Assembly: GCA_010909165.1 (NCBI GenBank)
Contig: MU008177.1
Location: 1,054,001-1,118,000 of the forward strand
Reading direction: 5' to 3'
From: Anthoceros angustus
Lineage: Eukaryota > Plantae > Anthocerotophyta
DNA length: 64,000 nt
The translations under genes were made by a program, and so were the position numbers. Of the stretch, positions 17,209-63,366 are shown piece by piece (within the stretch, counting starts at the first letter, position 1; every line of letters starts with the position of its first letter). Under the pieces are notes generated by a model. It had not been told where the DNA came from, made no database searches, and saw only the letters and a list, made by a program, of their open reading frames with translations.

Positions 17209-17448
17209 CTAGCAAGTCCTGAAATTTTCCACGAAATTCGGCTTCTTGGTCCGATCGTGAAATGTTTGGCTTGTGCTCCAGCTTGTCTTATTTGGCAAGA
17301 CCACAAGCTCAGCCCCCTGGAGGCTTGGTTGTTTGCCAGGGGTGTACACCCTAAAATGAGGTGAGCCGGAGTTCTCAGTGCCCACTAGAAACCCTGTACA
17401 AACAATTTGTTGAGTCCACAATGGATCCGGTCGCCATCTTGCGGCCAT
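17209..17448 (-). pseudogene. 5' fragment of a fourth PPR paralog (N-terminal peptide only)
   Basis: MAARWRPDPLWTQQIVCTGFL aligns with copy B MATAWQPDPLSTQQIGVCTGIL, and the upstream start context is shared. The sequence then diverges. Confidence 0.65.
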
Positions 17449-17498
17449 CGTTCAGGGACCGCTGCTGGAAGATGGACTGCAGGGCCATGGGAGGATCC

Positions 17499-18415: not shown

Positions 18416-18808
18416 CCATTCACAACCACACCTACTAGCAGGCAGGACCACCCTTGAACCCCTCTCACGGAATGAACTCGAGATGCCGAGACCGGCATCA
18501 ATCCTCGGATCCCGGAGCCTTGCAGGTGCTATAGCAGCTTTGCTTCCACAGACACGACACGAGAAGCTGAAAAAACTTGCAAATCCGTTCTCACACCGCA
18601 ACAAGCTGAATCCAGCAAGCGCAGCCCCTATTCCACAGGATCTGAGCCCAAATGCCAGGCCTGTACCCCGGCCCTAGCCCCTGATCTCCAAGACCCAGGC
18701 AGATCCAAAAAGAGTCCAAGCGAGGCAGGCGCGTCAAGTTGCCCCCGCGCCTCTCTGTTCTCTCCCTTTCTGTTATAATGAGAGGTGCCAGGATCAGTGT
18801 TAGGCATC

Positions 18809-18920
18809 CATGTCCATGTCTCAGTTTGGACAGGAATGGACATGTCCATGTCTCACTTTGGACAGGAACGGACATGTCCAAGTCTCAGTTTGGACAGGAA
18901 CGGACATGTCCATGTCTCAG
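18809..18920. repeat. 32-bp minisatellite downstream of PPR copy B (3.5 copies)
   Basis: Units start at 18809, 18841, 18873 and 18905. Confidence 0.9.
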
Positions 18921-18967
18921 CAAGCACATTCACCCCAATGAGCACTGGCAACGCTTCTTCGTGTTTC

Positions 18968-21664: not shown

Positions 21665-22298
21665 CTTTCAGGGACCAGTGTCGGAGGTGCATGGACAAGA
21701 CTAGGCCGCTCACAAACGAGTCCTCTCTACGCGCACTAACCCACTGCCTCCACAGCAGCCAGGCCAGGGTTGGTGGACTGACCTGGACGGTGAATGGCAG
21801 TGCCTGAAAAGCTGCTGAACAGCGGGCAGTTAAGCTGTGTTCAGGACCTGGAAAATTGCTGCTCAATAGCAAGACTGGACTGCACCTCGAGAAAGTAGCA
21901 CCCCTGCACCTGCACTTGCACCTGGAGAAGGTAGCATTGACACCTGCACCTGAACCTGCCCCGGAGAATGTAGCATTGGCACCTGCACCTGCATTTCCCA
22001 AACATTACCTCGCTCAGCACCTCACCTTGCGACTTTTTGCCGCAGGTGACATGTCCAGGCTTGGCTGTGAGCTGCTATACTGCTTTCCTGCTATCGTAGA
22101 GGAGGGGCTTTGTCCTAGAGCTTCGAGGGACTTGGCTGGCGCTGAGCCCCAACCAGCCCATTGATGAGCTTCATATTCTCCAATATACATGGAAAATATA
22201 CCATAAATTGATATAATACATCTTATTGATAAATAATAGATATTATTGATTATAGTATATGAACGTCATTATTAGCATAGCAGTCTTTTTTTTGAGCA

Positions 22299-23452: not shown

Positions 23453-23762
23453 AAAGATAAGTAATTAGATTGATTAATTATAATCAAACACTAAACTCAA
23501 GTGCAAAGATTAGTATCACACGGCATAACAGGATGCATAAAAATAACAAACGAATGCGATAAGACTTGCCACCTACCCGCCCACATCCTTGCCTTCAAGA
23601 GTTCTTGACAAACTTGATCAAACTTAGCCGACTCCGACCTCGATCGAGCAACATGCCCCTCTTCACAAGAGCACCACTCGGCCCGGGACCGGAGGCAACC
23701 TTCCTTTGACCTGAATTCCCACCTCTAGAGTGATGGAGGTCGTCTCCGTCGTTCCTTCACCT

Positions 23763-31041: not shown

Positions 31042-31086
31042 CAAAAATGAAGTGTTGCCAGTGGTGATTGGGGTGAATATGCTTGT

Positions 31087-38131: not shown

Positions 38132-41100
38132 ACCGTATCGAGGTCGGATTGTTGGTGGGGATGGCGGCGATTTGAATCGGTTGCATCGCAACTATCGAGG
38201 CTACCGCGATTCGATCGACATGAGGAGGTGGTACGATTTCAAGCGACGACCCGGTTCCCACCGACCGAGGAATTGAGATACGTCGGCCCTTGGGGTACAC
38301 TTTGTACGGCCGGAAGGGCAGCATGTGGGTATTTTACTAGGCGGAGTTGTGTAGAGAGGCTTTATCAGCTGGAAGGACTGTTTCAGCAATTTGGAGCGAG
38401 GCGGCAAAGGGGCTGGATTTGCCTCACGAGATCGAGGAGGCTCGGGCTAGCCTATGAAGGTTTTGCGGTACTTTGGGGCCACGTCGTGGGATTCGAGGCA
38501 GTGCCACCATCTTGCGTGAATAACTTGCCAATCCCCACACCCGGCGAGGGTCGATCACGGGCGTGACCCAGGGCCCTTGTGCTCCTATACACCAGCGGCG
38601 GCGGAAGGCTGGCGGCTCGCCACGGCAGGCGACGGAGGATCTAACGGCCCGGCTCGAGGGAGGCACGGCGGAATAAGAGGCGGATCAACTCGCGGGGCTT
38701 GAGGGCCGAAGGGCGACCTGCGGTGATGTACTAACCTTGGTGTAAGCTGGACATGAAATCCCGGCCGCAATGAGGGCTCGTGGTGTCCGGCAAGGTGATT
38801 CCTGTGCCATGCTGCCTTGTGGTAACCAAGATTGCAAAAGCTCTTGTGTGTGTAAATTGAGTCGAATCCTGGGCGAAGCGACAGCTCAGGGCTGTGAGGC
38901 TGTTCTCGTGCCAGCTGGCCTTGTGGTGCCTCCGCCGAGGGTTTTGCTCGAGTGGCTAAAGTGTGAGGCCGGATGCTAATTCCGCCGGAGCGACAGCCTG
39001 TGGATTGCGGAGGCGGTTCCCTCGCCAGCTCGTGGTTTTGGCGGTGCCTCCACTAAGATTATCCGGTGGAGTTGTGATTAGTAGGTAGTGAAGTCGCCTG
39101 CCGCCCAAGGCCGTGAAGAATTTGTGCACCTTGAAGGGGGGGGAACTGTGACTGCGACCACCGCCGGAAGTCATGGTGCATGTAATCAGCGTGGCACGCT
39201 CCATCGGCATGCAACAGTCACCAATGGACTCGAAATTTCAGTGCCGGCAGGTGATCACCGGTGCGGCGAGGATCGACCACTTACGAACCTCGCCACCAAC
39301 GCGCCTGTCCAGCAATCGAGAGTGAATCAATAGCCGTGGGGAATCGACTAAATTATGGACACGGCACATGGGTGGTGCACATCTCAAAGTGGGTGCCGTA
39401 CACAAAGCTCGGAGGGTTAGCAGCCGAAGTCATGCGGCTCACCGCCGGATTGCGTGATCGGAGGTCGGGTAGAAGATCTATCACCGCCAATCACACGGAT
39501 TGCAATCGCAGGCGAAGGTAATCAAGTCGCTTAGCAAGTATGGGGAGCAACTCGGCCGGATGCTGCGATTGTCAGCCACTGGGCCCGCAGCGGCGAGCAG
39601 CAACGCGAGGCGAGTCAATGCTCACTGAGTCACGACCACCTAGGGAGGCTGTGCCAGGTAGCACGTCCCACGGGCATTTACCTGGACAGTGAGACGCCAC
39701 TTTTGACCTCCGGAGCCATAGGACCCGAGCATATCTCGGGAGTTATGTGGCGCCTAATCCTCAACAAAGATGTTACCATCGCGCTACATTTCTCAAAGAC
39801 ACGCACTATTGTGGTGGATGCAGTGGAGGTTATCGCCCAAGGTACAATTACACCAACCACCCTCGACGCAGACGGATGGTCAATTTGGCACCTTTGAGGG
39901 GAGACAAATGGCGAGGAAAATTTGGCTAGGTCGCCAACGCATTTACGAAAGCACCACACACAAGAGTTTCGACGCCTCGTCCAAGCATCCGGGGATCACC
40001 AACGACGAAATGCTAGATCGCCGCGAGGCTTGCCGTCCGCAAGGATCGCTAAATGGCAGTGCCGAACATTTGAGGACGCAATTGTGTCGCCCAACAAACC
40101 GATGCTCGCTTCACCGGTTAAAGGGTGGTATAAGCAGCAACCCTGGGACGGAAGGCCTGTGACAATGCGACACCAATGGAACTCTAACACTTCAGCCATT
40201 TTGGTCATACTGCCAAGGATGGGGACACCGAGCACCTAGGACTGCCACGCAACACCGGACGAGGCCGAGGTGGTCGGGACGGGTGACGACCACCGCCCAA
40301 CAAAGAAGGATTTAGGCGAGGGAGACCCCAAGAAACAATAATGTCCAGATCAAGAATTGCAAGACTCGGAAAACGAGGCTTCCAGCAGCAGAGGGGCATC
40401 CCGAGGAGTGGTGACCATAGCCCTAGGGTCCGGCGACTTTTTACCATCCGAGGTCAAGTAAACAGTAACCTTTGTCGCATTTTACTCGACTCGGGTGCTA
40501 GTTCTAATTTTATGTCTAGGACTTTTGCTAAGCAGGGAGGTTGGGACACCCACCAGTTGTGTGGGCAGGTCCGGTTGGCCAACGGCCAGTGTCAGGCTAA
40601 TGCCACAATCAGCAATTATGTTAATTTACGCATGGGGGGCCACTGCGAGCGTCTCCGTTTCACCATCACCGATCTTGCCGAGGGGCATGATATCCTGCTG
40701 GGTATGCCTTGGTTAGAGGACCACAATCCAGTTATAACGTGGCCTGATCACGAGTTAACCTTTGCAGATTGGGGGGAGGCGCCTCACTGTACGAGGCGAA
40801 CAACTCACGGGAAGGAAGAGGAGGCAGTGCCAGCAAATTTCGGCCGCAGTACTAGAGTGTGCATTGCGCAAGGGGACCGAAGATCTTCAGCAAACCGTAA
40901 TTGTTATCAAGGAGAGGCTGTGTCCAACGCGATCGGACCAGCTTGTCGCCCCTGTAGGAGATACCAAACTGGCTGCCATAATGGATGAGTTCAAGGACGT
41001 GCTGGTCGACACACTGCCGGCAGGATTGCCCCCAGCTAGGGAGGGGTCGACCATCGATCGAACTCATACCGACAGCCGACCTACGTGTACGATGTCCGCG

Positions 41101-43708: not shown

Positions 43709-45203
43709 AGAAGAATGCTTCTAGCTTTATGTCGAGCTTAACTTGAAATTTATCACAGCGATCCAGACGGCCTTTCTTTATGGTCACCTTAAAGAGGAGA
43801 TCTACATGGATCAACCAGAGGATTATGAAGATAAGAAATTCCCTCACAAGGTGTGTAAACTACTCCAATATATGGACTTAAGCAAAGCCCACGCTTATGG
43901 TACGAGAGAATGGATTCTTATCTCAAGAAGTTGGGGTTCATTCCAAAGTGAAGATACTAACATCTATGTACTCGGGATAGCTCACTTGTACTTGTTGCCC
44001 TATATGTCGATGACTTAGTTATTCCAGCAATAATGTTGAATGGTCAACAAGATAAAATGATTTGAGCAAAGAATTGAGATGAAGGATCTCGCAAAGTTAA
44101 ATATATTCTTGGAATGCATGTACATAGAGATAGCATCGGAGCTATTTATCTTCATCAAGGACGATATGTATGGTATGCTAAAACGCTCAACTTGGAACGT
44201 GACGAGCGAGCCCACACCAGCCGTTGGTGTTAAGCTCATCGCTCCCCGCCTGCAAGAGGACAAGAAGGAGATGGAGATCGTGCCCTCACCGCATGGGAGT
44301 TGGAACTCTCATGTTCTTGAGTAATCAGACAAGACCAGACATCTCAAACACCGTGAATGCTGTTGCTCAGTTCTCAGAGAATCCAGGGAGGGATCACTGG
44401 GTTGCTCTCAAACGCATCATGCGATACCTCAAGGGTACTCAAAACTATGGCCTATGCTACAAACCTAGCGGAAAGAAGCGCCTCCTACTTACATGTTATG
44501 TCGATGCAGATTGGGCTTTGGACGCTGACACCCGGAAAAGTATCTCAGCATATTGCTTTCTTGCTAGCTCCACTGTTGTTAATTGGTCTTGTAGAAAACA
44601 AGCAGCCATATCACTTTCATCAATGTAATCGAGTACAAGGTTCTCACCAAGCCACCAAAGAGGCTGAATGGGAAAGGAAGCTATGTGAGGATCTGGGTAT
44701 GACGCAGAAGGGCCAACAATACTTAACTGTGATAATATGTCAGCAATTGCTTTAGTTGCTAACCCCGTGTTCCATGCACGCACGAAACACATAGAGATTC
44801 AACATCACTATATTCGTGATGCTGCAGAAAGGGGAATAGTAAAGGTACAGTATGTACCAACAGACGACAACACAGCAGATGTGCTGACCAAATCCTTGCC
44901 CAAGTTTAAACACTGCTTCCACAGAGAAGGGCTTGGATTAGTAGACTGTAGTAGCTTTATGACGCTAGACAAGTCACTCATATGGTGAGGCTTATCATCT
45001 TTTGTTCCATCACTTGAAGTTGATGCTTGTTCCCCGCCTTGGCCACAACCGTGTACTACTCCGTGAGTCTGGAGAGCCGCCACACGGAGTACGGAATGCG
45101 AGTTGAGACAAAGTAGTGGAAGATCAGGCACATTGCAAGACTACAACGAGTGGTCTCCTTTGTTTTACGGAGATCTCGGATAACTCAACGGTCCGAGAGG
45201 GAG

Positions 45204-45425
45204 AGTTAGAAATAGTGCATCGCTGCTGGTTAAGGTCGACTAGACCACCCAATGTGGATTAGTCAAACTAGACTCAGCTAGTTGGTAGTTAGTTAACTAG
45301 CGGGCTAGTGAAAGGACACACCCCCTCGTAACCATCCTTTATAAGCCCACCTATGAACTAAACATATTTATTGTTAATAAAGCATCTACTTGATGCAAGA
45401 CGCTTCCGCATATGCATCTCTAACT
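45204..45425 (+). repeat. 3' LTR of Copia
   Basis: Preceded by the PPT gagagggag (45195-45203) and followed by the TSD gcctt. Confidence 0.92.
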
Positions 45426-46259
45426 GCCTTAAGAGGCCGCAACCTGCCAAAACCTTGAACAACCCACCAAACTACCGCCCACACTTGCCACAACTGCAAA
45501 ACCCCTAAAAACCCAAGTCTCCGCAAAACTTCAACCCCGTCAAACCATCCCCGCCGAACCGGACAGCCTACAACCCCATGAACATACCATCACCACGCCC
45601 TAGTGGTGCTCGCATTAGGGGGCACGGCATCCTCGAACCGCCCCGGCTGAACCCACCGGGCGTCAACGGAAAGCCCTGTAGAGGCAACGGACCAGGCTCG
45701 CTGTATGCCCCAAAACCGGGTCCGCCACATGCCTCGCTACTGAGCACCTTGTCGAGGACTGCTGCCATGCCACGAGGCCAAGGGCAGAGGCCGTAGGGGC
45801 CCGCGTGGCATGCCCCGTATCTGAGGGTGGACTCCAACGCTGTCACCGTGTCGGGCCCTGGAAGCCCTCCTACACACACCGAGGGTGACCACCTTGCACC
45901 CCTCCTGAACACCACTCCCAGCGACAAGCACGTGCACAGACCGCGGTCAACATCGCACACCTACCTTGCACTCCTCATGCTCGTGCACATCGTTCCCCTC
46001 ACGCTTCCGCACTGACAGATAGTGAGTCTCAATGGCTCTTCAATGGGCCTTCTCTATGGCGATCATCCACAACGCGGCGATAGCAGGTGATGCATCCTCC
46101 TCCACCTTTGTAGTTTGTACGCGGTTTTCTCTTCCCGCGTATGACATCGTAGGCATAATCGGTAACTTCCGATAGGGAGCTTACTTGCTCCGTTTTCAAC
46201 TCGATCCTCAGGGTCCCTATTGGTTGTACTTTGCTGCATGGGCTTCACATGCGCCCTCC

Positions 46260-46950
46260 TTCAGGGCACGTGGAAACCGGTACCCTGCGCCGCCGAGCTC
46301 GCCGCGCCCATGTGCCCCGCCAGGCTCGCCGCCCATGCGCCTGCTTTTGCTTCAGGATGCCGGCATGCCGCGCCCATGCGACCGCTCAGGTCGTGGATGC
46401 AGCATGCCCCCATGCGCCTCGCCGGGGTCGTGGATGCCGACATGCCAGCGCCCATGCGCCTCATGCGCCACGCGCCCATGCGCCTCATGCGCCGGTGGTG
46501 CCCATGCGCCGCGTGGTCGATGCATCGCGCCTTGCGCCTGCTTTAGGATCGGATGCCGGCATGCCGGCGCCCATGCGCCTACTGTGGCTTGTGGATCTTG
46601 GCATGCCGCGCCCTCTCAAGAGGGCGCATGGCGCATGCTCATACCACGTGCCCGGCGGCGCATTACTGCCATGCTCTTGTCATCGTGCCATGCAGGCGCA
46701 TTGCGTATGCATGCCGGGCCGTCGAGCACATTCAAGGGCATTGGGCGGCGATGCTGCGCATCGTGCCATGGTATGGGGCACGGCGAGAGCCACATGGGTG
46801 CGCAGGGGCCCTTGGTGAACAAGCAAGTGCACAGGGGGTGGCCACGAGCAGTGCGCGCGCACCAGGGGCAGGGGCTGCGGCGCACTGGACGGGGCCAGTG
46901 CACTGCCGCAAGCCCGAGGCAAGGGGCAAGGTACGGTGGACTATAGGCTC
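46260..46950. repeat. GC-rich field of CCCATGCGCC / GGCGCATGG motifs (possibly an LTR or TE terminal region)
   Basis: About ten (c)ccatgcgcc-like copies at 46300-46580, with reverse-complement versions at 46620-46800. Confidence 0.7.
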
Positions 46951-47029
46951 TCCCCTTAGAAAGGTAAGCTAGTTTTTTTTTTTTTTTAGTGTGGAGTGAG
47001 AAATAAGATGAGAAAGAGGAAATACCGGA

Positions 47030-48090
47030 ATGAGTAAGAAGGTGATCGATCAAGCGCCTGGATAGGGACTCGGACCGCATCCGAGTAGACAGGACTACGG
47101 ATCGCCCGAGTGGCCCGAGGACTACGGACCGCACCGAGTATCACGGTGAGTCCGGGCGCTCGAGCAAGTCGCCGGAAAGGTAACTTTGGAACGGGAGCGA
47201 GTTTGGCAAGGCGCCACGTGGGCGGTGTTGAGAGGGGGGCATGCGGACTGACCGTAGGGTTGCAAGGGTCATGGGCGGTAACCGCGCGGTACATGCGCCG
47301 AGTAAGGCTAGAGTACGAGGTGGCGTGGCGGCTAGAGTAAGCAATGCAGACTCGATTCTACGGGCAGCGAAAGGACGCCCTCCGCGCTTTGCATTACTCC
47401 GACGCTCGCACCGAAGCGCAGTTATCTCTCGGCCGGCGGCGGTTTTGCGATCCTCGCTGCACCTTGCTCTCGGCGCTATCTTTTCCGCGCCCAGCGCACC
47501 ACGAGCGGCCCTCTTCGCGAACGGCGGTGGGCCGGTAGCGTAAGGAGAGCGCCGATCATCAGCCACAGCAATGAGGCGCGCAATTATGGGGCCCAAGCGG
47601 AGGTCAACCCCGGCGCTCGTGGTGGAGGAACATCGTCACTCAAGCGCTACCCGACCGGGCCTTGGCTGGAGGCCAAGAATTGGTGCAGATCGGCACTGAC
47701 ATCTTCCAGCGGTTTGACGTCGGCATACGCCTCGGGTCCAGAGTACGCCAAGATGTTGGCGGTGGCCAAAACGTCCGCTCCAAAAAGCTTGAGGAGGACC
47801 CTGTGAGATGGGCCGTGGAGGTCCGAGGGCGGCCCGCCGCCCGGAGGAAATTGGGGTGTAGTCCGGAGCCCCTTAAGGTGAAAGGGAAGGTGGAGGCTGC
47901 AAGGGCGGCGCCTTGAGGCGGGGGCGGCCTCAAATGGGTGGCTAATGTCGACTGCCTGTGAGGCGGTGGCAAAGATCGCGTTCATCGAATACATGCTCAC
48001 CAAGGTGGATCACCTTGGTGACAATTTGCTTGTGTTCTTCCACGCCCTGGAGAGAGGGAAGAGGGCCGACTGGGGAAGGATCATCTTCTC
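47030..48090 (+). pseudogene. Degenerate retrotransposon accessory ORF (tentative)
   Basis: Fragments such as IAFIEYMLTKVDHLGDNLLVFFHALERGKRADWGRIIF resemble the G..xDW..II motif of plant retroelement extra ORFs. It lies next to a minus-strand PPT-like site at 46948-46972. Confidence 0.35.
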
Positions 48091-49621
48091 AGAACCTGAG
48101 CCTGACCCTGAACCAACCCTACGACGTTCCATACGCCATAGGCCACCCCCAGACCAGTGGTTAGAACCCTACTAACCAACGTCGATTTCCGAACGTCTTC
48201 GGCAGTTTATGGTGCTACACAGAATATCCCTCCTGCCGAGGAACCCTATCATACAAGGAAGCCCTCCGTGGCCCAGATTGCTCCAAGTGGCAGGCACTAG
48301 TGGAGGATGAATACCAATCTCTGCTCAAGAACAAGACTTGGAAAATCGCTGACCTACCACCTGGATGCAAAGCCATCTCATGCAAATGGGTTTTTAAACT
48401 TAAACTCAACGCTAAAGGGGAGATTGCCAGGTACAAAGCCAGACTGGTGGCAAGAGGATTTACCCAGGTTGAGGGCCTGGATTACCAAGAAACATTCTCA
48501 CCAGTTGTTCGAGCACAATCCTTTCGCATATTGCTGGCTCTTGTAGCAGAATTGAACCTCGACTTACAGCAAATGGATTTGTGTACGGCCTTCCTCTATG
48601 GAGACCTGGATGAAGACCTGTATATGACACAACTTGAAGGATACGAAGACCCTGAACATCCCACCAAAGTGCTTAAACTGCTCAAGTGCATATATGGACT
48701 AAAACAAAGTGGCAGAATATGGTATATCACCATGCATATCTAGCGGATCAGCATATCCTTTGTCCAAAGCACAGCAGACTCTAACGTTTACAGACTCAGC
48801 CAAGGAAGTGACTTCGTCATATTAGCCCTATATATCGATGATGTCATCCTCACCACAAACAGTAAAACTCTGTTAGCTGATGTTAAGCAAAAGCTAATTA
48901 CCAAGTTCGAGATGAAAGACATCGGAGAACTTAAATACTGTTTGGGAGTTCAAATTCTAAGGGTACGAGAGGAAGGGCTACTGATAGTTCACCAGCATAA
49001 AATATATCAATGACATTTTGCGAAAATTCAAACTTGACGAAGCTAGACCCTCAACTACCCCCTTTACCATGGGCGTCAAACTCACCAGTCTCCAATGCCC
49101 ACAATCTGAGGAAGATATTAAGGACATGAAGGATGTCCCCTACATATGCAAATTAAATCTTCTTAGCAAATTGGACAAGGCCAGATATACGGTATTCTGT
49201 AAGTACAGTACCACAATTCCTGGAGAATCCAGGAAGAGCACATTGGGCTGCTGTCAAGCGGATTTTGCGCTATCTTAAAGGAACCCACAACTATGGACTC
49301 TTCTATCGTAAGGACTAGATAGAATCACTCCCGAGGGACGTGATGTCGATCAAGGGCGTCGGATGTTGATTCCGAGAAAGAGTCTTTCCACCTACTGCTT
49401 CCTATTAACTTTGGCTGCTGTGAACTGGTCGTGTAAGAAGCAATCTTCCATAGCCCTGTCATCCACAGAAGCAGAATATATAAGTCATTGACAGATGCTT
49501 CAAAGGAGGCTGAATGGGAAAGGACCTTCCTTCACGACCTCGACCAGACCCAGCAGACACCTACCCCTATCATGTGTGATAACATGCCAGCCCTAGCCCT
49601 TGTCGCTAATCCATGTTTTAG

Positions 49622-49642
49622 AAACCCTAAACCCTAAACCCT
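49622..49642. repeat. Interstitial telomeric repeat (AAACCCT)3
   Basis: Perfect aaaccctaaaccctaaaccct inside the Copia RNase H NP.FHARxKH motif. Confidence 0.9.
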
Positions 49643-50047
49643 GATCTAAACATATAGAAATACAACATCACTACATTAGAGATGTGGTGGAGCGCGGAGT
49701 CGTGAAGGTGGGTTATGTGCACACAGACTCTAATGTCGCAGATGTGCTAACGAAAGGATTGGCAAAACACAAACACTACCAGCATCTTTCAGGGCTAGGC
49801 CTGGACGACTACACCAAGTATTTCAGATAACTTATCTGTGGTGGGGTGGGGTGGGAACCCGAAGGTTCCCTTGGGAATTATGTTGTGCCCTCATTCTTCC
49901 TTGAAGGCACACAGGAGCTGTAGGCGCCACACACGTTCCCTCAGGCAACGCACTCCTGTTAGTGGAACAAAAGAGGGAGATGGACAGCCTTGCAGGGAGG
50001 ATGAAGCTTACCTTAAGACCTAATCTCCTGGCAACGCCATACTTCTC

Positions 50048-51457: not shown

Positions 51458-53348
51458 ATGGATTTGAGTTCTTGTATTAACTTAGAAGAGTTACCAACTA
51501 ACACACCTTTTGTGGTGCAGCTTCCTAAATTAGGGTTATTTAACCATACCGACCTAAACTGGGTTTCTTCTCAATATGACCATTCTAGGGCACCAGCAAA
51601 AACATGTGAAGGTGGCTCACATACTCTTTTCTAGAGTGGGAGACTTTATTGGGGAATGAGTGCTATAAGTTCCCATCCTACGAACTTCTACAAGAAGGAT
51701 TCTAAGGGCCGGAGTTTACCTCACCTCAAAATCGACAAAGGCATACATCATATGTTAGGTAAGAAGGTTTGAAGTATGTAAATTGTTTTATTACTTAGGA
51801 GGCATTAACATTGTGAGGTGGCTTGCGTATTGGTGTTCTTACTACCCGGAAGACTTTCGCCAAAAGGAGGTGGAGTGTCACGTGGTGCCACATACAAATG
51901 TAAGGTCCTCCGTGGAGAGAGTGTCAAGCATGGTTGCCAAGCAAATTTTAGGTGAAGAAACTTCTCCGTGGCCTAAGGTTGAGATTGGTCTTTTGAACAT
52001 AGGCATACCGACCTTTCAAATGCTATATGTCATGGGCCCGGTACGGCTTACCCGTGATGTCGAGCGCATGGCTTTCACAAGAAAAGAAGGATTGGATCGC
52101 ATTGCCTATATTGCAAAGTTCCCTGATGAAATAATGCGCTCAAGATCAAGATGCATTGTATGCTCGAATCAACAATCGATGTAGGTATATAAACTAGTAA
52201 GAGATGATTATATGCAAAGATATGATGTTCTCAATATACACACAAGTTGAAGTTGGTGAATGGAAGCTAGCCCCTGATGATGCCACATCGTTGTCCCGTG
52301 GTTGGAGCAAAATGCGCCTATAGTCTTCCACCAATCAAGCGAGAATCAACCTTCGCTTTGGGTATTCAAACTCCTTTTATGTTAAATTGCATGTTGCTTT
52401 ATGGGAATGGTAATGTGCTAGCTATGGATGCAACTTTTGGGTTGAATGTATCGCTACCACTTATTCACTGTGATGGGTTTTGACCATTACTTGAACGGTG
52501 TTCCGTAGCATGGGCTATTACAAAAGATGCTACCACCGAGTCACTTGTCGTGGCTTTATTACTAAGAAGGTTGAAAAGATCAACAAGGATTGGACACCTA
52601 GTTCATTCCTTGTTGATGATGTCGCGTAGATTTCGCTATTCGCCTGTGGAATCATAACATACCTATATTATTATGCTTGTGGCATGTGCGAAAAGCGTGG
52701 AGACGGAATTTATTGAAGAAAGTGCACTCACAAAGTAATCGAATTTCAATATGGGCAGAGCTAGGGGATATTATGTATGTCACAGGGGCAAGCACATCTT
52801 CACAGTGTGTTTCCATAGGAAGAAGTATGCTACACAATTTTTATGACAAGTGGGGAACAAGTGAAGGAGACTTTGTGAGATATATGAAGGTCCAATGGGG
52901 AGAGACTATAGATATGTGGTTGTGTAATGCTAGAATGTTGCCTCATGCAGGGCAACATACAACTTCATGGAAGGATTCCATAGATTTATAAAAGAACGCA
53001 AAGATTTAGCAAGTCAAGTTTGCTCGGCGTAGACTAGACGTTACTACACCAATTAGTGAATGTGGTTGCGACATTATTGGTACCAAGACTTCACAAAAGA
53101 AGGGGATACAGCATAACAAGAAGTGGAGGCTTTGGAGGAAACCGCTATGAAGGGTGCGAAACTATTCCTATTAGCTCGCTTATTTTACCGCATGCGAAAA
53201 TGTTGTTGCACATTGTTTGTCTTCATCGACCCCTAACTTGTGGTATGTGATTGAACATGTTTACCTCCTTGGGCTACATGCTCATGTCCAATGGGGAACA
53301 AAGGTTTCATCCGCAAGCATGTGGTGAAAGTTCAACAACTCATGCTAG
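51458..53348 (+). pseudogene. MULE-type transposase / SWIM zinc-finger remnant
   Basis: YWCSYYPEDF, FALGIQTP..L..MLLYGNGNVLAMDATFG, WTPSSFLVDD, LCLWHVRKAW..NL.KK, and SWIM TCSC...G...KHVVKV directly before the inserted retroelement. Confidence 0.8.
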
Positions 53349-53901
53349 TGTGATACTAATCTACGCACTTGGGTTTAGTGTTTGATTAGCATTAATTAAT
53401 CTAATTACTTATCTTTAAGTAAGTAATTAGTGTTAATTAATCTAAAGTGCTTATGTTAATTAAGCGTTGATTAGTGTTAATTAATCTAATGTGCTTATGT
53501 TAATTAAGCATTGATTAGTGTTAATTAAACATGGTTAGCAATAGCTAAGTGGATAAGCTCAAGTAATATTTCCTTGCATATTATAGTGTATTCTTAGGAT
53601 ACAATAGCTAAGTGGATAAGCTCAAGTAATATGCTTTGGCATATTCCTTGCATATTATAGTGTATTCTTAGGATATTTCGGCATATCGATGCCAATAGGA
53701 TATCTTAGGAATATGATGCCAGGTCTAGTATATAGACCCTTCCATTGAGGACAAGCTCGATCATAGCTTGTCCTCTAGATATGCAATGCAAGAGCGAGGA
53801 GGCCAAAGCTATGACCCGAGGCGATGTGTGAGGAATTTGCGTGTTGTTCTCGTGGGAGAGTGTGTTTGTGCCACGACGTGCTACTCCTCCCTGTTGTTAC
53901 A
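53349..53901 (+). repeat. Terminal repeat A1 (LTR-like, TGT...ACA)
   Basis: Near-identical to 61373-61924; contains internal 44-bp TTAATTAA-rich and ~65-77-bp tandem duplications. Confidence 0.9.
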
Positions 53902-53917
53902 AGCTATGATCTCGGCA

Positions 53918-54047
53918 CTAGGTGATGCTAGGCGATGCTAGGCGATGCTAGGCGTGCTAGGCGATGCTAGGCGCTAGGCGATGCTAGGCGATGCTAGGCG
54001 ATGCTAGGCGATGCTAGGTGATGCGAAGGCTGCTAGGCGCTAGGCGA
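53918..54047. repeat. 10-bp minisatellite (ctaggcgatg)n
   Basis: About 13 copies, some degenerate. Confidence 0.92.
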
Positions 54048-54096
54048 GCCACGAGGCAACGCTAGTTCTTTAAGCAAGTGCAAGGGACTAAGTGTG

Positions 54097-54416
54097 CCCA
54101 AGGCTTAGGCCAAGGAGAGAGGCAAGAAGCCCAAGTCCAAGGCCAAGGAGAGGAGGAGAAGAAGCCCAAGCCCAAGGCCAAGGAGAGGAGGCAGCCCAAG
54201 CCCAAGGCCAAGGAGAGGAGGCAAGAAGCCCAAGTCCAAGGCCAAGGAGAGAGGCGAAGCCCAAGTCCAAGGCCAAGGAGAGGAGGAGAAGAAGCCCAAG
54301 CCCAAGGCCAAGGAGAGAGGAGGCGAAGAAGCCCAAGTCCAAGGCCAAGGAGAGGAGGCGAAGAAGCCCAAGTCCAAGGCCAAGGAGAGGAGGCAAGAAG
54401 CCTACCAAGGAGAGGA
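54097..54416. repeat. Purine-rich ~30-33-bp minisatellite (aagcccaagtccaaggccaaggagaggagg...)
   Basis: About 10 copies; this accounts for the low-complexity ORFs in all frames. Confidence 0.92.
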
Positions 54417-54575
54417 ATGAGGCTCCAAAGGCCTTTAAGGCCAACCAACCAAGGGAGAAACAAGAGTATTTTACTCTTGGGCCCTGGATTCAAGGGATAA
54501 GGGGAAGCGGATAGACATGGGTATGTCATCAGTCCATGTGATTTCACTTTCTGTCCAAAAGTCCTAGTTTGTCGG

Positions 54576-54626: not shown

Positions 54627-57275
54627 TACGTCTTTGCTATCCAACTCACCCACTTCTTTTGACTATGATATAGCCTGCAGAGTATTTCTATGCGATTTTA
54701 ACATGCATACATACTTAGAGGTTTCACTAATCACGATCTAAGATAGCGGGGTGTGTTAACCTTGATTAAGGGTTTGATCTAGCCACTAACCGCCTGGAGT
54801 GCTCGACACACTCGATCCGGACGGAGCTACCAACCAACAAGTCCATCGAGCGAATTCAAGTCCCGACCAAGAGGGAGAAGTGCCACCGATTTTGGTACCA
54901 CAAGGACGCGGAGGAACCCAGACACACAATCAACAATCTTTGAAGGATCCGTGAGTGGCAACACACAAGACACGTTAGTGCTGCCGGACAACTCGGAAGC
55001 GAGAGGAGGACTTGTCTCTTGGAGTCGTCAAGATGGGAGGAGACAAGGATCGAATGGAGTTGTTCACAGACGAGCGGCACCTTGCCACCGGAGGACTTCA
55101 TCGAGAAGTACGGTGTGTGCGGAGATGGAATTGAAGACCGGATACACGAAGCGATACGGCTTCATCCAAATGCAAGTACTTGGGGATGAAGCATTGGCGT
55201 GCTATCGCGAGCACAAGGCGAGGCTGTTGAGCGCACATGGAGGACCAGTGAGTAGCAGTTCAAGCTCAAGGAACCAGACGGGGCGGTGGCACCGAGTGGG
55301 CACGATCCCATCAAGAGATGTTTGACATCTTCCTACCGGAGTTCCTGCAAGCACGGATGAGAAGATCTCGTGACACACACTTCAAGATGAAGTCAGCGAG
55401 ACTGCAAGATGGCTTATCAAGAATCGACCAGTTGGTACGTGACACCAAGATCATGAGTGACCGACCGCAGAGAAGTACTTGGGCATTGCCATATGCACGC
55501 ATGAAGGTGCAACAAGCGGTGCATGCACGGGGGCAACACTACACCCTCAAGGAAGTGTACGAGATGGTCGACAAGATAGGGCCCGCGACACTTTCTCTCG
55601 CTGTCAAGTGATTACTCCAAAGACAAGTAGGAGTGGTGGACGACATGACCGACGCGGAGGTCGAGTGGAGGAGCTCGGCGAGACAAGCCAGCCCACCCCA
55701 AGTGACGAGCCCCGTGAGGTGCCGAGGACGGACCATTCCCTCATGAGTGCGAGCATGCATTCGGAGGAGTCAAGGGTGAGGAGCCATGCCCTAGGTGTGG
55801 AGGTACGGCACAATGAAGCGGCATGTTGGAGAAGCATCCGAATTGCGGCCTACGGGTTATCGAGCAGCAACCCCGCCAATGCATCCGCCAACCTCATCCA
55901 CAAAATCGAAGAGCAAAGGCGCCGTGGAGGAGGCACCCAAGTCCCGTGGACAAAAGAAACGGGAAGCATCAAAGAAGACGATGGATGCACGTGGCACGCC
56001 TTGCAAAGCTGGAGAAGTTGGTGCGGAAGGCGAAGATCAAGGAGAGCAGTTCATCATCGAGGACGAAGAAGATGAGCACAAGCTTGGATACATGTCGTGA
56101 CCGATCCAAGGGCAGGAAGAAACCGCAGCTACGAGAGAAGATAGCTCGAGGAAGAAGAGGATGTCTTGACACCGAGCGGAAGACACGGAAGGAAGCTTCG
56201 GATCCTCTTCCCGAACCTATGCCAAGATGCCAAAGTCGTTTGAGCCATTGCCAGGAGCAACTGTGGAGCAACATCAAAGTCCAGTGGGCGATGTGGAGAA
56301 ACCCATGCGATTGCGACGGAGACGATGGCACAAAAGCTCGGAGATGCCATGTTTCACCTACAAGACATGGGGTTGAGCGTGAAGGAAGTCAGGGGTTTGA
56401 CTCGGCGGATGTTGACAACCCTTGAAGACGAAGCAAGTGTCGACAATGTGCCACAACAGGTGGCAATGATGTCATTGCTGACCTCGGAGCCAAGCATCTC
56501 TGTGGAGAAGCGGAATGCTGCACGAGTGGGAGTGGCTTTGGTCAACAATCAAGAGAGGCACATTGAAATCAATGGATTCGCACCAAGGAGGGTGTTGATT
56601 GACACCGGAGCACAGCCGGTGATCGTTGGAAGAAGAGTGAAGGAAGCGTTGGGTCTCCACCAAGAAAGGTTGAAGGAAACCAAGTGGAAGATCCACACAC
56701 CGGGACCACGGAGCATGTGTTGGGGTGACAAGGTACAAGCTGAAGGTTTCATTCAAAACAAACAGACTTCACCTTTGTCGAGGTACACCGCTTGGTCACC
56801 GATGCGACACTTTTGATGTCTTGGGAGCGGACGCTTTGTACAAACCTCGAGTCATGGTGGATTTGTGGACGGAGACATACTATCGACCAGCCGGAGAAGC
56901 TGGAGCAAAACCGATGAACGGATTGCCCGCATCCCTCTACACTGCATGGCAAGGATCATGAGAACCTCATTGCCAACAGCGTCTACCCGTGTTTGGCGCC
57001 AGAGTGAAGGACACGCCATACGTGCTTGAACCTCTTGGCGTGTGTCTAACAACCGCAATCGACCCGATGGAGGATTTCGAGGAGGAGGAAAACAAGCTAG
57101 GGTTGCAACCACCCGGAGGAGGTTCTTCAAGTCACTGGACGGAGCTGGTGATGCAGCAATGAGCAAAAGTGTGGAGGATGGTGCAAGAGGACCGGTCCTA
57201 TGAGAGAACTAAGTTCTTGCCTAGGGTTGAGCCTGTTTGTGACCTAAACACCTGTGTCATCACATGGCGACCTCG

Positions 57276-58160
57276 GAAGACGGCATAGTGCTCGTGGAAC
57301 TCTTTGGAGGCATCGACGGCTTGAAGCTAAAGTGTGGCATCAAAGTGCGAAGATACGTGCATTGTGACCCGGATCCAAAAGCAAGGATTGTGTCACGAAG
57401 CGTAAGAGACTTGATGGGGAGTACTAACCTCCGACGTGGAGTGTGAAGGGTTACCTATACCGCCGATGGATGTTCGCATGATAGGGTTGTCCCATTTGAG
57501 TTGTCTTGGGCAACCGTGGACCTTGTCATCGCAGTTGGGAGTGTCAAGGACTATCCTCTGCAGTAAGGGTCAAGGTCTCAAGGATCCATAACAGCATTGT
57601 TCTATGACTGATGAGGATCTTGCGCTTGATCCGTAAAGGGCAAGAAAGGCCTTGTGGATACATGTTGGAGAATGTGCCAAGATGCATGAGCGTGAAGAAG
57701 CAAGTTCGGAGGACTTTGCCACGATCCGAGGAGTGTTGGGTCGAGCTTCTATTGGATGCACTCAATTTGGTTCGAGGGCTCATAGGTTGAGGTCCATGTG
57801 GACTAACCTTGCTCCTTGGAACATTTGAAGTGTGCGAGGTCGCTCACCAAGCGACCTAATCATGTTGTCAAGGATGTGCTAGCATCGGAAGGCATGCCCA
57901 ACAAGTCATCAAGACTGCCGCCGCACTTCCTGTGAACACGCCTGACACCCCATGGCGGCTTGGCCAACCTTTGTGTCTAAGTCCAAGTCTTACGCCTTCA
58001 GGAACCATGGCCCCGGTGGTGGATGACATGGCGAGGTTTTGGGAGAGCCACCACGAGAGGAGTTGGCCATGGATTTGATGCCGGAGCAAGACACCGGAGT
58101 GACCGAGAAGGAACGGTGTCGATTGCTTGGGCAAGCATTTGACGTGAACATGATGACTGG
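57276..58160 (+). pseudogene. DNMT3-like C5 cytosine DNA methyltransferase domain within retrotransposon pol (frameshifted)
   Basis: Motifs in canonical order: I IVLVELFGGI, II KVRRYVHCD, III DVR.I, IV VDLVIA.WECQGLS (catalytic Cys), VI YMLENVP, VIII LDA.QFGSRAHRLRSMWTNL, IX/X RELAM...ERCRLLGQAFDVN. Confidence 0.88.
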
Positions 58161-61061
58161 TTGTTTAGCGCCGAGTCGCTTACCAACTTCAAACCAAGAA
58201 GGCGGGGTTGAAGCGGGTTCGGTGGGTGAAGGATATTCCGACTCGCATCTCAACAGGAGAAGGCGAGTTTGGAGGGCAAGGAGAGCGAGCACGTAGAGGA
58301 AGCGTGCAAGCCATCGAGCCACGCCCACATGAGTGGTTAACAGGCCGAGTTGAAGAGCAATCAACGGCCGCCTAAAGGAGTTGTTGGAGGCATCGCGACA
58401 TGTGTTTGCTTTCACGCTATGGAGATGGGGAAGTACACCAAAGGGAAGTTCCACATAGAATCGACCACGGATGAACCAAAGTGTTCAGAGAGGGTGAAGG
58501 CTGAGTGGGATTTGGTTGAGAATCGATGCCAAGAGCTTCTCAAGCTAGGGCTGATTCGACGATCTAACTCGCAGTACGCAGCTGCGACAGTGCTTCCGAA
58601 AAAGAAGGATGAGAATGGATTGTGGACGGAGAGGAGAATGTGTGGTGACTATCGGCCGTTGAACGAGCGAATCCCACATGACCACTATCCCATGCCGACG
58701 GCCGAAGAGATCTTCGACACCATTGGGTCTGCCAAGTTCTTCTCAACATTGGACTTGAGGCTAGGGTTTCACCAAGTAGAGATCGCCGAAGAAGACAAGA
58801 AGAAAACGGCGTTCTGGGGCAGAGATTGCTTGTACGAGTGGAACTACATGCCATTTGGGTTGAAGACATCGCCAACGCAGTTCCAAAGATACATGGACAA
58901 TGAGCTCAAGGACTTGCCTTTCGCCAAGTGCTACATTGATGATGTCATCATCTTCAGCAATACCTTTGAGGAGCATCTACAACATCTTCGAGCAGTCTTT
59001 GCTAGACTGGCTGCCTGGGTTGAAGGCCCATCCAGGGAAGTGTCGATTTGGAGAGGACAAGGTGTTGTACTTGGGTCATTGGATCACGCCTGACGGGATC
59101 TCGCCGCATGCCACCAAGGTGGAGGCAATCGCGCGCATTCCCAGGCCAAACGACATCTCGAAGTTGAGGGCATTCTTGGGGTTGGCAGGTTACTACAGGA
59201 AGTTCATTCCGCGGATGAGCAGGATTGCGCGGCCATTGAATGACTTGTTGAAGAAGTTGGTGACTTGGCGTTGGACTCAAGAGGAGGAGTCAGCTTTCAT
59301 GGAGTTGAAGGGTAGACTCATGAGCTCGCCAATTCTTGGTCATCCAAACTTGAAGCGCTCGATTTTACATCGATTGGAGCAAGTACGATAGGCGCCTTGG
59401 CGCAGATCAATGACAAGGAAGAGGAACATGTCATTGCCTATGCCACGGAGCAACAACCAAAGCGGAGTCCAACTACTCTGCCTATGAAGGAGAATGTCTT
59501 GCAGCAGTGTGGGCAGTGGACACTTTCGTCCGTACTTGTTTGGACATCAATTTCGAGATCACCACCATCAACCCTTGCATTGGTTGATGACGAACGCCAA
59601 GCTTAAGGTGGCGAGGTGGGCTCTCATTCTCCGTGAGTATGACTTTGTCATCGAACACCGAGCGTAGAGTTCACTCTAATGCCGATGGGTTGTCAAGGAA
59701 TCCTCTACCGTAACGAAGACACTAGGGCCGTGCAAGATTCGATGACGAGCAATGGGGAGAGTAGTCCAGATACCATGTTGGCTATGCCGCATGAGGATGT
59801 CAAGATGCCCTCCACTCATCGCTTTGTATGCAGAGTCCGTCAGGGACATCTGGGCGGATGCAATAGCGGTGACCTTCCTAAGGTCGGGAATTGCCACAAG
59901 GGCTTTCATCTCGAGCAGGCCAAGCTACGAGAAGGTGGCTCGATTATTGGAAGGAGGACATAATGTATGTCCGTGATTCTGGGAGATAGAATTGTACCCA
60001 AGCCGGAGGACGGGTGAGACTCATCACCTGTGCATGAAGGCTTAGGGCATTTTGGTGCTAAGCGCACCTACAAGATGCTCAGCCCACACACTTTGGGCAA
60101 GGATGTATGGAGATGTGGAAAGGTCGCACGTCGAGTGTGCGATCGAGTGAAGGCAAGGTTCATACCAATGATGTTGTGCTTCACTCCGATCCGAGGACTC
60201 TTCTACGTGGAGTGTGGATCTCATGCCGACATGCCGAGACGCAGATCGGAAACAAGCATGTCATGCTAATGGTGGAGCATTTCAGCAAGTGGTGCGAGGT
60301 TGCCATCTTACCCAAGCGTGACTCTCACCAAGAAGGCGTTCTTGGCTTCCGTTCTTAGTCGATATGGAGCATGCGAGGTTCTCACCGACCAGGGCAAAGA
60401 ATTCGTGGGGAATTTCAAGACTTGCTTGACAGAGCTTGATTGATCATCGACGCCGAGAGATCATCCTCAAGCCGATGGACTTGCCGAACGCTTGGTGCAC
60501 CTTCAAGCGGCCTTGCGCAAATATTGTCTCACAAATGACCAAGACATGGGATGAAGGGATGCCATACCTAGTGCTAGGGTGTGGTGAGCAATCAAGCACC
60601 TTGAGCAATTTTTCACCATACTACTTGTTGTATGGGCGACAACCATTTTGCCAAACGTGAGGCAAGCAAGGCTACAAGCACTGGATTGGCGCAATGCGGA
60701 TGATTGCCTACGAGACCGGAAAGGCGGGCGAGCTTTTCAAACGGATCATGCCCATGGCAATGGAGAACCTTGCCATAGCGCAACATGGGATCAATGCGCT
60801 ATGCTTACACACGAGGAGGGACATGGAAACCCAAGGTGCGCAAGTTCAAGTTGGAGATTATGTCTACGCGGAAGCCGTGCAACACCTTGGAGGTATCCAC
60901 CACAGTCATCTTGCGGTCGTGCGAGTAGGCAAAGATGGAGTGCTTGAGCTCAAGGATCCGATGGTCAAGATGGAAGGATCACCTCAAGAATCGCGCACCA
61001 TGCCACTTACCCAATTTGGACCCTCAACTACGGCCCATAATGTGGCCCACCCAAAGACTTG

Positions 61062-61196
61062 GAGTGTCGTTTGTGGACGATCGATGATGATGATGTAATG
61101 CTTCTTTGTGATCGGTGCAATAGGGGATACCACATGTTTTGTGTTCAACCACCTCTTGACGACATTCCCGAGGAAGATTGGTTTTGTGCACAATGC
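61062..61196 (+). other. PHD finger (C4HC3) at the integrase C-terminus
   Basis: C.VCGR.DDDDVMLLCDRCNRGYHMFCVQPPLDDIPEEDWFCAQC, with small indels in the first codons. Confidence 0.9.
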
Positions 61197-61267
61197 ACTA
61201 CATGAGGTGCGACGATGTAGTCCTACTAATGATAATGTTTTGACTTGGAGTCTCACATTATCGGGGG

Positions 61268-61372
61268 ATTGGTTTGCACCTATATACCGTATTAGATTTG
61301 TTTGCTTGGTTGTTGGTCGAGGAAGTGCTTATATGAATTCAAGTGCTTACCTCGTATGCATACCGCCATGCC
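61268..61372 (+). repeat. Terminal repeat B1
   Basis: attggtttgcacctatatac...gtgcttatatgaattca, repeated at 61924-61996. It follows the purine tract ggggga. Confidence 0.85.
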
Positions 61373-61924
61373 GTGATACTAATCTGCACTTGGGTTTAGT
61401 GTTTGATTAGCATTAATTAATCTAATTACTTATCTTTAAGTAAGTAATTAGTGTTAATTAATCTAAAGTGCTTATGTTAATTAAGCATTGATTAGTGTTA
61501 ATTAATCTAATGTGCTTATGTTAATTAAGCATTGATTAGTGTTAATTAAACATGGTTAGCAATAGCTAAGTGGATAAGCTCAAGTAATATGCTTTGGCAT
61601 ATTCCTTGCATATTATAGTGTATTCTTAGGATACAATAGCTAAGTGGATAAGCTCAAGTAATATGCTTTGGCATATTCCTTGCATATTATAGTGTATTCT
61701 TAGGATATTTCCGCATACCGATGCCAATAGGATATCTTAGAATAATGCCGGTCTAGTATATAGACCCTTCCATTGAGGACAGCTCGATCATAGCTTGTCC
61801 TCTAGATATGCAATGCAAGAGCGTTGTGAGGAGGCCAAAGCTATGACTCCGGTGAAATGTGAGGAATTTGCACCTCGGGGAGAGTGTGTTTTGTGCCACG
61901 ACGCGAGCTACTCCTCCCGTGTTA
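61373..61924 (+). repeat. Terminal repeat A2
   Basis: Direct repeat of 53350-53899. Confidence 0.9.
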
Positions 61925-62020
61925 TTGGTTTGCACCTATATACTGCGTATTAGATTTGTTTGCTTGGTTGTTGGTCGAAGTGCTTATATGAATTCATGTT
62001 TACTCCGATACAACCTCGCA
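61924..62020 (+). repeat. Terminal repeat B2
   Basis: Direct repeat of B1, near-exact to 61996 and weaker beyond. Confidence 0.82.
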
Positions 62021-63366
62021 TACACAAGGAAGCAGTCTTAGCCAGGCAAACCAAAATGGAAGGACGGCGAAAGTAGTGATACCAACAACTTGGCTATGGC
62101 TTTTGGGATGCGAATCAAGAAGCTCCACACATTGTGTTGCCTAGTAACCCCTTGGTGGCACCAATATGTAAGACAAAATTGAGATGGCAAAAGAAAACGT
62201 TGATTTTATTAAACCAAGACATGTGTCAAGTATGATACCGCATTTGAGCGTTGATTAGCTTTTGGGATAGCCTACATTATGGAGCAATGGTGAGATGAGT
62301 GGCATGCATGAAGAACCTCAACTAAACAAGTGTTGGAAACTTTGCCGAGAATGAGCAACAGATCAAACGATATGTTGGTTTGGAGGAAGTTGTGTGTAAG
62401 AAGAAAAGACGTGAAGTGGAACATAGGCGCTTGATAAAGGGTGGATTGATGAGCTGAAATAGGCTTTTGGTTTTGAAGTGACCAATCTACTTTTGTAGGT
62501 GCCGAGAGGAGATAGCAGAGACTCGCTTTGATCGGGTCAATTACGCCGCCTTAGAAGGTCGAATCCACTCTTCCGGTTTTAGAAGGTGAGAATTGACTCA
62601 ATGCCAAGAGATGCACTATGTACAAAGAACTCCTCCAAACCCGTGAGGAAACTTAAGCACTAAAGCGCTGTAAGAGGTGCCCATTCCCTACCACCACCGA
62701 TCATGTCGATCGAACATGCTTCCGGCCAGCCTTCGCCACCTTCTGGACCGAACCCGAGTTGCACACGTTTGTGAAGGATCGCATGTGCTTCATGCCATAC
62801 TCACCAACGAGCCACACTCACTCGTAAGCCCGCACCTACATTCATGCATCCGACATCCAGATTAACCTCAAATCTTTGTGAAAGAGAAACAAACATTACG
62901 ACCAGCTCCAGCTCGCCCACTTACCACGGCCTTGAGGCAATCGCCGTCCGACAAGAGGCAAGGCGGCTTCCGTAATGCTGCCAACATTTCGTGCCCCCAC
63001 TCATACCCAAAGACCAACACCGGAGTCGATGTGCACGTCGAGACATTATTCTTGCCATGTCTGGCGGCTTTCACTTTGTTCAAATTCCGTGAATGCTTGT
63101 ACCGGAAAATCACCGCAAAGGGTACAAGGAAGAGAAGGATCGATGTCGACATGCAAAACCAGCACTCCCCTTCCAAAGTTCAGCAAATCCACATGAAGAG
63201 TAATGATGCTTGTACCTTGTGCCAATAGTGCAGATCAAGATGACGTTGATTCACGCCAACTGACTCGTGATTGTTCCCAAAATGCCCATGTCCAACAAGG
63301 TAGGCCTCACGCTCGCCGTGAGGGTCATAGCCTAAGAAGAGAGATAATTTGTCCGCGTATTGCATC

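Follow-up and report, generated by a model that had tools for sequence, protein, structure and literature searches.

The window analysed here is the whole stretch of 64,000 nucleotides from Anthoceros angustus contig MU008177.1. It is rich in transposons: positions 1-12500, 40287-40988 and 44700-49850 contain several Copia remnants, spaced in a tandem-like way, and a further Gypsy protease fragment. Three close PLS-E-DYW PPR paralogues lie at 13400-21700 (reverse strand) and 28700-31050 (forward strand); one is intact (899 aa) and two are frameshifted, and they have an N-terminal extension of approximately 200 residues with no Pfam match. The subject of this report is a retrotransposon that extends from 53350 to approximately 62020, in the order repeat A, leader with tandem repeats, probable gag, protease, DNMT, reverse transcriptase (RT), RNase H, integrase, PHD finger, polypurine tract, repeat B, repeat A, repeat B. 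Its features are as follows:

53350..53898, forward strand: repeat A1, the 5' terminal repeat, with 91.7% identity to 61373-61926
53900..54420, forward strand: tandem short repeats of the 5' leader
54800..56400, forward strand: probable gag region, broken, assigned from its position between the leader and the protease
56487..56693, forward strand: aspartic protease, with LIDTGA at 56595 (Pfam PF13650, E 1.9e-5; tblastn with P0163)
57264..58170, forward strand: DNMT3-like C5 cytosine methyltransferase, spread over three frames (tblastn with P0001, P0020, P0021 and P0163)
58344..59707, forward strand: RT, with YIDD at 58932, and RNase H (Pfam PF00078, E 1.1e-23, and PF17919)
59988..61039, forward strand: integrase, frame-broken, with HHCC at 60033, core motifs LTDQG at 60381 and ADGLAER at 60471, and a C-terminal domain to APCHLP at 60995
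61065..61205, forward strand: PHD finger and stop codon, with seven of eight zinc ligands, G two residues before the zinc-binding His (His-2), Asp after Cys3, and a pair of acidic residues where the acidic wall is expected
61263..61267, forward strand: polypurine tract (G run), directly 5' of repeat B1
61268..61360, forward strand: repeat B1, with 92% identity to 61924-61999
61373..61926, forward strand: repeat A2
61924..62020, forward strand: repeat B2, the 3' terminus, end approximate

The true start of repeat A1 is probably about 10 bases further upstream, as the termini of sibling copies start with TG just before A1. The gag region of the window has no match above threshold to the intact relatives tried and no family match. 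The start of repeat A recurs as a short copy (86% identity) at 23453-23539 on the reverse strand. The element itself sits in an apparent transposase remnant (51760-53340 and 62020-62500) without a Pfam match, which we take to be probably of MULE/SWIM type on the basis of its motifs. In three runs, contig depths over the window element sum to between hundreds and thousands, a value that indicates a multi-copy family and is not a copy number.

The window element combines the protease-RT-RNase H-integrase order of Ty3/Gypsy elements with DIRS-like A-coding-B-A-B repeats. The same repeat arrangement is complete or nearly so in the related loci L003, L016/17, L031, L039 and L041. In every one of the 17 metagenome loci examined, B1 is immediately preceded by the polypurine tract. 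In relatives, B1 ends in ACA and A2 starts with TG, with a 2-base spacer between them in 9 of 17 loci (2 of the 17 have no spacer and 6 did not parse). Complete copies of relatives end in TG...CA and are flanked by a 4-base target duplication that is exact in four of five cases and has one mismatch in the fifth, the mark of DDE-type insertion. These duplications (TTTA, ATGT, CCAC, CCAA and ATTA/ACTA) have no common sequence; all five come from one moss-type subfamily that is not the window's own. For the window copy, three of four letters match, a reading of low confidence. The anatomy suggests how the repeats might arise, as this layout would be expected of a two-LTR circle that a DDE integrase had opened at att sites inside the LTR. 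A literature search for an account of such a route brought up only a DIRS and a Penelope paper.

The PHD finger is encoded on the forward strand at 61065-61196 (Cys1 codon at 61065, last Cys at 61194-61196), with a stop codon at 61203-61205. It reads C-R-L-W-T-I-DDDD-V-MLLCD-R-C-N-R-G-Y-H-M-F-C...W-F-C-A-Q-C and comes after the C-terminal domain of the integrase (motif APCHLP at 60995). In the HMM search that the initial annotation had proposed, Pfam PF00628 matches the finger with an E value of 1.4e-12 and 47.9 bits, above the curated cut-off of 24. That annotation, which was made from the letters of the window, had called a complete C4HC3 PHD finger with G-Y-H rather than W-x-H and an acidic run before MLLCD. 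The finger is present where it was placed, and both the G-Y-H and the acidic run (DDDD) are borne out, but only seven of the eight zinc ligands are present as assembled: the first ligand pair is C-R-L-W, in which the second Cys is missing, and the Pfam alignment begins at position 8 of the 47 in the profile. No Pfam match to a chromodomain is found in any family protein scanned; the integrase C-terminus bears the PHD instead.

As assembled, the window finger is out of frame with the integrase. A stop codon (61038-61040) lies nine codons before Cys1, and the integrase tail is in another frame. Compared with the intact relative P0163 by tblastn, the window element has at least nine frame changes. 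Aligned over 570 columns, the two A repeats of the window element show 10 substitutions and as many as 14 gap events; by comparison, in five metagenome copies the substitutions number 21-34 and the gap events 0-3. Short-read contigs from sibling copies, which need not include the window copy, align on the window with many letters extra to it, many gaps and few substitutions, and differ from it at the stop codon. In runs X2, X3 and X6, such contigs have Cys-x-x-Cys at the first PHD pair, as do relatives. The excess of gaps in the A repeats, the gappy short-read alignments and the sibling sequence at these two places favour assembly error over age, so faulty assembly of long reads, rather than biology, probably accounts for the frame breaks and small indels of the window copy. 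Real decay of the window copy is a possible source of its breaks.

The claim that the PHD is appended to the integrase in one polyprotein thus fails for the window copy as it stands but holds for its relatives. Beyond the window, the PHD and the integrase tail share one frame in 45 of 47 loci (45 of 48 once the window is included), the exceptions being two decayed loci. These counts derive from 82 loci in metagenome and binned contigs, many of which are near-duplicates of one moss-type subfamily. DNMT is present in 52 of the 55 loci with enough upstream DNA, PHD in 46 of the 50 with enough downstream DNA, and both in 33 of the 35 that could be tested for both. At the protein level, an RT search returned 44 proteins, including nine with RT-RH-INT-PHD and five with DNMT and RT (precomputed Pfam), and a profile of the integrase tail plus PHD recovered 347 clusters at 50% identity (E ≤1e-30). 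Among the best 150 representatives of these clusters, 31 have more than 450 residues before the integrase; DNMT lies in the same ORF in 29 of them, and the other two begin at RT. The zinc ligands lie approximately 100 residues from the AQHRD motif, a distance that is fixed in 36 proteins. In six pairs of four stop-free related elements, dN/dS is 0.046-0.102 for the PHD and 0.009-0.026 for the integrase core; for the DNMT it is 0.082 (one pair), and dS is often near saturation for these values.

The in-frame position, the co-occurrence counts and the low dN/dS identify the PHD as an old and selected part of the integrase: in the relatives, it is an integral C-terminal component under purifying selection. 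It is not obligate, as Closterium elements and P0161 carry DNMT without PHD and the finger of P0021 is degenerate. These exceptions, along with the broken frame and missing ligand of the window copy, are what could be expected if the PHD were a piece of host sequence picked up by chance, or a dead tail, and did nothing for the element. We find this explanation hardly credible given the conservation of position and ligands across the 347 clusters, a dN/dS no higher than 0.10 and the intact Cys pair of the sibling contigs; at the level of the family, it is refuted by the in-frame counts, the dN/dS values and the ligand conservation.

Named relatives come from Calypogeia, Marchantia and Closterium; together with the PLS-DYW PPR paralogues of the window, they point to a non-flowering land plant as the probable host. 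P0125, an INT-PHD protein, has a Chromochloris identifier, which suggests that chlorophytes are also among the hosts. Several Marchantia polymorpha gene models annotated as "hypothetical" (e.g. Mp7g09570, Mp4g09160 and Mp6g11220) are pieces of this Gypsy-DNMT3-PHD family; the pieces from this species are P0118, P0153, P0155-P0159, P0162, P0164, P0165 and P0170. Two intact plant-type elements, L081 and L082, are filed in a cyanobacterial bin, and the bacterial labels on L081-L092 and P0061 likely reflect eukaryotic contamination of bins. No relatives of the element were found in viral contigs. In a quick RT tree (SH-aLRT without bootstrap, RT stretches shorter than 175 residues and most unnamed RT-only rows left out), the window RT is placed among DNMT- and PHD-bearing rows and apart from eight other Ty3 rows (SH-aLRT 99). 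Within this group, it is weakly joined (82) to a clade that contains the elements with a stop codon described below as well as Marchantia and Calypogeia rows.

The methyltransferase of the window element retains its motifs in unpermuted order: motif I VELFGG (57294), motif IV ECQG with the catalytic Cys (57539), motif VI ENV (57665) and motif VIII AHRLRS (57778), all upstream of the PHD. The intact domain of the relative L005 has DNMT3A/B/C as its top matches among 40 PDB sequences (E 6e-8). The PHD therefore does belong to a methyltransferase-bearing element, as the initial annotation had it, and the enzyme is DNMT3-like in this relative.

Three layouts of these domains are observed in the family. 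In layout (i), PR-DNMT-RT-RH-INT-PHD is encoded by one ORF, as in P0163 (2358 aa) and, in part, P0123 and P0111; DNMT shares an ORF with RT in P0001, P0021, P0161 and P0163. In layout (ii), gag-PR-DNMT is followed by one in-frame stop and then RT-RH-INT-PHD, as in L005 and L081; in these and other loci, the RT-RH-INT-PHD ORF is free of stops. The stop is a single in-frame TAG-CAR-YYA before RT in L005 (5083-5091), L081 (3489-3497) and L012, and TAG-CAA-CCC at a fixed place before RT in L014, L059 and L075. Approximately 20 gag-PR-DNMT proteins end 76-172 residues past the DNMT, many of them on the same homologous residues. UAG-CAR-YYA is the TMV-type (tobamovirus) readthrough signal according to the available text of PMC3542737, and the TAG-CAR-YY between DNMT and RT is a probable readthrough site of this type. 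The placement of this candidate stop after the methyltransferase would put DNMT production at the level of Gag, with pol made by leakage. The window element has the domain order of layouts (i) and (ii) in broken frames, and no TAG-CAR-YYA is present in it. An apparent TAA-CAG at 58338, before the RT ORF, was dismissed as a candidate readthrough stop, because relatives match in a different frame.

In layout (iii), RT-RH-DNMT-INT-PHD is encoded by one ORF. This arrangement is found in 20 of the best 150 representatives, and a further 17 start at DNMT-INT-PHD. Proteins with DNMT between RNase H and integrase include P0134, P0167, P0169, P0172, P0174, P0176 and P0177. Several proteins with DNMT before the integrase have long C-terminal extensions past the PHD. 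In two, a G-patch separates DNMT from integrase.

The cage Trp of H3K4me3 readers stands two residues before the zinc-binding His. This position is G in the window finger; among 136 parsed family fingers, it is G in 126, A in 8 and W in none (12 further fingers did not fit the parsing pattern). A set of 45 fingers that partly overlaps the first gives the same picture, with no W at His-2, and the family lacks the Trp cage of ING-type H3K4me3 readers, as had been proposed for the window finger. Other positions differ in their conservation. Asp follows Cys3 in 124 of the 136 fingers and the P...W end is present in 43 of the 45, while D or E is found at the acidic-wall position in 42 of the 136, at one or other of two acidic positions in 90 of them, and before Cys1 in 25 of the 45. 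The second Asp of the UHRF1 pair (xCDxCD) is found in only 14 of 136.

Among 59 PDB matches to the window finger, the best are CHD4, KMT2D/KMT2C, ATXR5, BAZ2A, KDM5B, UHRF2, WSTF, DPF3 and KDM5A. The fingers of BAZ2A/B, KDM5-PHD1, ATXR5 and UHRF1 share with the family the pattern LLCD-C..G-Y/W-H-..C..PPL..IP...W-C..C and the lack of a Trp cage, and with the window finger an acidic wall, its D-D being aligned with the D-E of BAZ2A. They differ in that the family mostly lacks the second xCDxCD Asp and does not carry the acidic wall throughout. In an AlphaFold model, the finger of a relative superposes on those of BHC80, BAZ2A/B, ATXR5 and UHRF1 at 1.5-2.0 Å; the model derives from a 7-row alignment, with a mean pLDDT of 54.6, and is poor outside the PHD. 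The D-E wall is associated with reading of unmodified K4 and hardly ever coexists with the cage Trp, as reported in the available text of PMC5415848, which is also the source for the role of that Trp. The assignment of the finger to the type that binds unmodified H3 is thus favoured by its closest structures, which are mostly such readers, but the acidic run is not a family-wide trait.

Given that His-2 is never W, that Asp follows Cys3 and that the PDB matches are as listed, the finger is predicted from sequence likely to bind the H3 N-terminal tail and unlikely to read H3K4me3. Selectivity for H3K4me0 is plausible and not assured, since some of the PDB matches (KMT2C/D, DPF) come from multi-finger modules and since the UHRF1 PHD, of the same sequence group, binds H3 regardless of K4 methylation, in a manner dependent on two Asp residues (PMC3214078, available text). 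The finger could be a general tether, which reads H3 Ala1-Arg2 whatever the state of K4, like UHRF1, or binds a non-histone partner, and serves efficiency of integration rather than choice of chromatin. The conserved residues fit such a role, being the Asp after Cys3 (R2-binding in UHRF1) and the P...W end, as do the variation of the would-be K4-sensing acidic residues and the target duplications of the five relatives with no common sequence. The window finger, against this, has an Asp three residues before Cys1 in addition to its double acidic wall, as do the K4me0-sensitive BAZ2A and KDM5-PHD1, and we consider a general tether unlikely, if not strikingly so.

The reading to which we incline, as a somewhat probable one, is that the PHD at the tip of the integrase binds the unmethylated H3 tail and tethers integration away from H3K4me3 promoters, with the DNMT probably separate and acting on the element's own cDNA. 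By analogy with chromodomains, the PHD would be the chromatin tether of the integrase and, in binding the H3 N-terminus, would dock the integration complex on nucleosomes that lie outside H3K4me3 promoters. Ty3/Gypsy polyproteins are cut by their own protease. Proteolysis would presumably free the DNMT from the integrase-PHD, and the free enzyme may then methylate the cDNA of the element in or near the particle. The pair would thus be a joint strategy, in which the element lands in silent or neutral chromatin and arrives pre-methylated, and not one reader-writer enzyme. The parts of this model that we infer are H3 binding, sensitivity to K4 methylation, target choice, proteolytic separation and the DNMT substrate. 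Insertion of the window copy in the apparent MULE/SWIM remnant fits, and does not demonstrate, a preference for silent chromatin. Methylation of their own cDNA has been proposed for DNMT-bearing elements by de Mendoza et al.; in the available text of that work (PMC5890265), the isolated KnitGypsy DNMT has no activity in yeast, a result that the authors regard as inconclusive, and the reason for cytosine methyltransferases in retrotransposons is an open question. A Chlamydomonas Gypsy element with a PHD has intergenic insertions at 2.6 times the expectation, which may reflect selection after insertion (PMC9940879, available text).

The initial annotation had brought the two domains closer together, suggesting that the element may couple integration directed by H3K4me0 to de novo methylation, after the logic of DNMT3 and its ADD domain. 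The ADD of DNMT3 acts by allostery in cis. In the corresponding model for this family, DNMT and integrase-PHD would remain together in the pre-integration complex, where reading of H3K4me0 would direct de novo methylation to the newly inserted copy and the DNA beside it. The near-obligate co-occurrence of the domains speaks for this (33 of 35 loci, and DNMT in the same ORF in 29 of 31 long representatives), as do their presence in one DNMT-RT-RH-INT-PHD ORF in P0163, P0123 and P0111 and the retention of the pair while DNMT has held two positions. DNMT is directly before the integrase in 37 of the best 150 representatives. A further consideration is that the moss host DNMT3 is without a chromodomain and the way in which it reaches heterochromatin is not known, according to the available text of PMC6453930. 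Against coupling, RT-RNase H separates the two domains in the window layout, a stop codon lies between them in a related clade, and Closterium elements and P0161 have DNMT without PHD; co-occurrence in one lineage reflects shared ancestry and is not independent evidence, and nothing here speaks for cis allostery of the ADD type. ADD-like control is disfavoured in the window's branch for the first three of these reasons. Coupling is favoured in the branch with layout (iii), where DNMT adjoins the integrase and a lasting DNMT-INT-PHD fusion would be allowed, but for the pair in general we regard it as quite unlikely. Overall, the observation made in the initial annotation is partly confirmed and its interpretation partly supported. 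A broader proposal is, in our judgement, decidedly unlikely: that a superfamily of hundreds of clusters spanning the green lineage has kept DNMT3 and an H3K4me0-type PHD as one system, even while DNMT moved from a place next to the integrase to one next to the protease; the PHD would place the integrase on nucleosomes unmethylated at H3K4 and the co-delivered DNMT3 would seed heterochromatin on the copy and its flanks, with readthrough setting the dose of the writer in one clade and two-LTR-circle integration explaining the DIRS-like repeats.

The separate components of this element have precedents. KnitGypsy-Dnmt3 of Klebsormidium nitens, one of the Gypsy-DNMT3 elements of streptophytes (the name is that of bioRxiv 10.64898/2026.05.21.726589, available text), shares the Gypsy gene set, a DNMT3-like domain in pol and A-coding-B-A-B repeats (PMC5890265, available text). 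The likeness is one of domains and repeats; the protein searches brought up no named K. nitens sequence. The term "PHD" does not occur in the main text and three supplement files of PMC5890265; the drawing in its Fig. 4c may show one. In contrast to KnitGypsy-Dnmt3, the family described here extends to bryophytes (Calypogeia and Marchantia), Closterium and a protein with a chlorophyte (Chromochloris) identifier, and has two DNMT positions and one clade with an in-frame stop before RT.

PHD fingers in Gypsy polyproteins are described in the available texts of PMC9940879, PMC6673714 and bioRxiv 2021.11.30.470311. Chlamydomonas Gypsy-7a_cRei likewise has a PHD in its polyprotein, a proposed role of the PHD as an insertion guide and an intergenic bias, but its figure legend shows ordinary LTRs and no methyltransferase (PMC9940879, available text). 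REM1 of Chlamydomonas (Perez-Alegre 2005) is also a PHD-bearing Gypsy element, according to works that cite it. Chromoviruses and CopiaMBD, as described in part of their literature, resemble the present family in having a reader domain on the integrase tail that is presumed to steer integration; chromoviruses differ in that a chromodomain occupies the integrase C-terminus where the window family has a PHD. The EpiLTRs of Cymbomonas and Euglena join a chromatin reader and a DNA methyltransferase in one LTR retrotransposon, but the available text of bioRxiv 10.64898/2026.05.21.726589 gives them a chromodomain, DAM and a DNMT4-related enzyme, without a PHD, and states that they are distinct from Gypsy-DNMT3. 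Phygy (Neumann 2019), known to us by description, has an NCGN insertion preference that the target duplications of the five relatives do not match. Neither "PHD" nor "methyltransferase" occurs in the available text of PMC6317226 and PMC7466625, and no description of a Gypsy element with the PHD and DNMT3 pair was found in the titles and abstract openings searched, a scope outside of which lie most subscription papers and Repbase.

PHD-bearing Gypsy elements, Gypsy-DNMT3 elements and elements with a methyltransferase and a chromodomain are thus already published, and as an add-on the PHD finger by itself is of a known type. For the near-constant pairing of PHD with DNMT3, the two domain orders and the leaky stop, we found no account in the texts searched. 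The Gypsy-DNMT3 lineage is large, is present in land plants and nearly always has an integrase tipped with a PHD. Its natural variants, with DNMT beside the integrase or the protease, one ORF or a leaky stop, and loss of the PHD in Closterium, provide contrasts for testing a link between reading and writing of chromatin, and hosts of the Marchantia type are ones in which the chromatin maps for such a test are obtainable.
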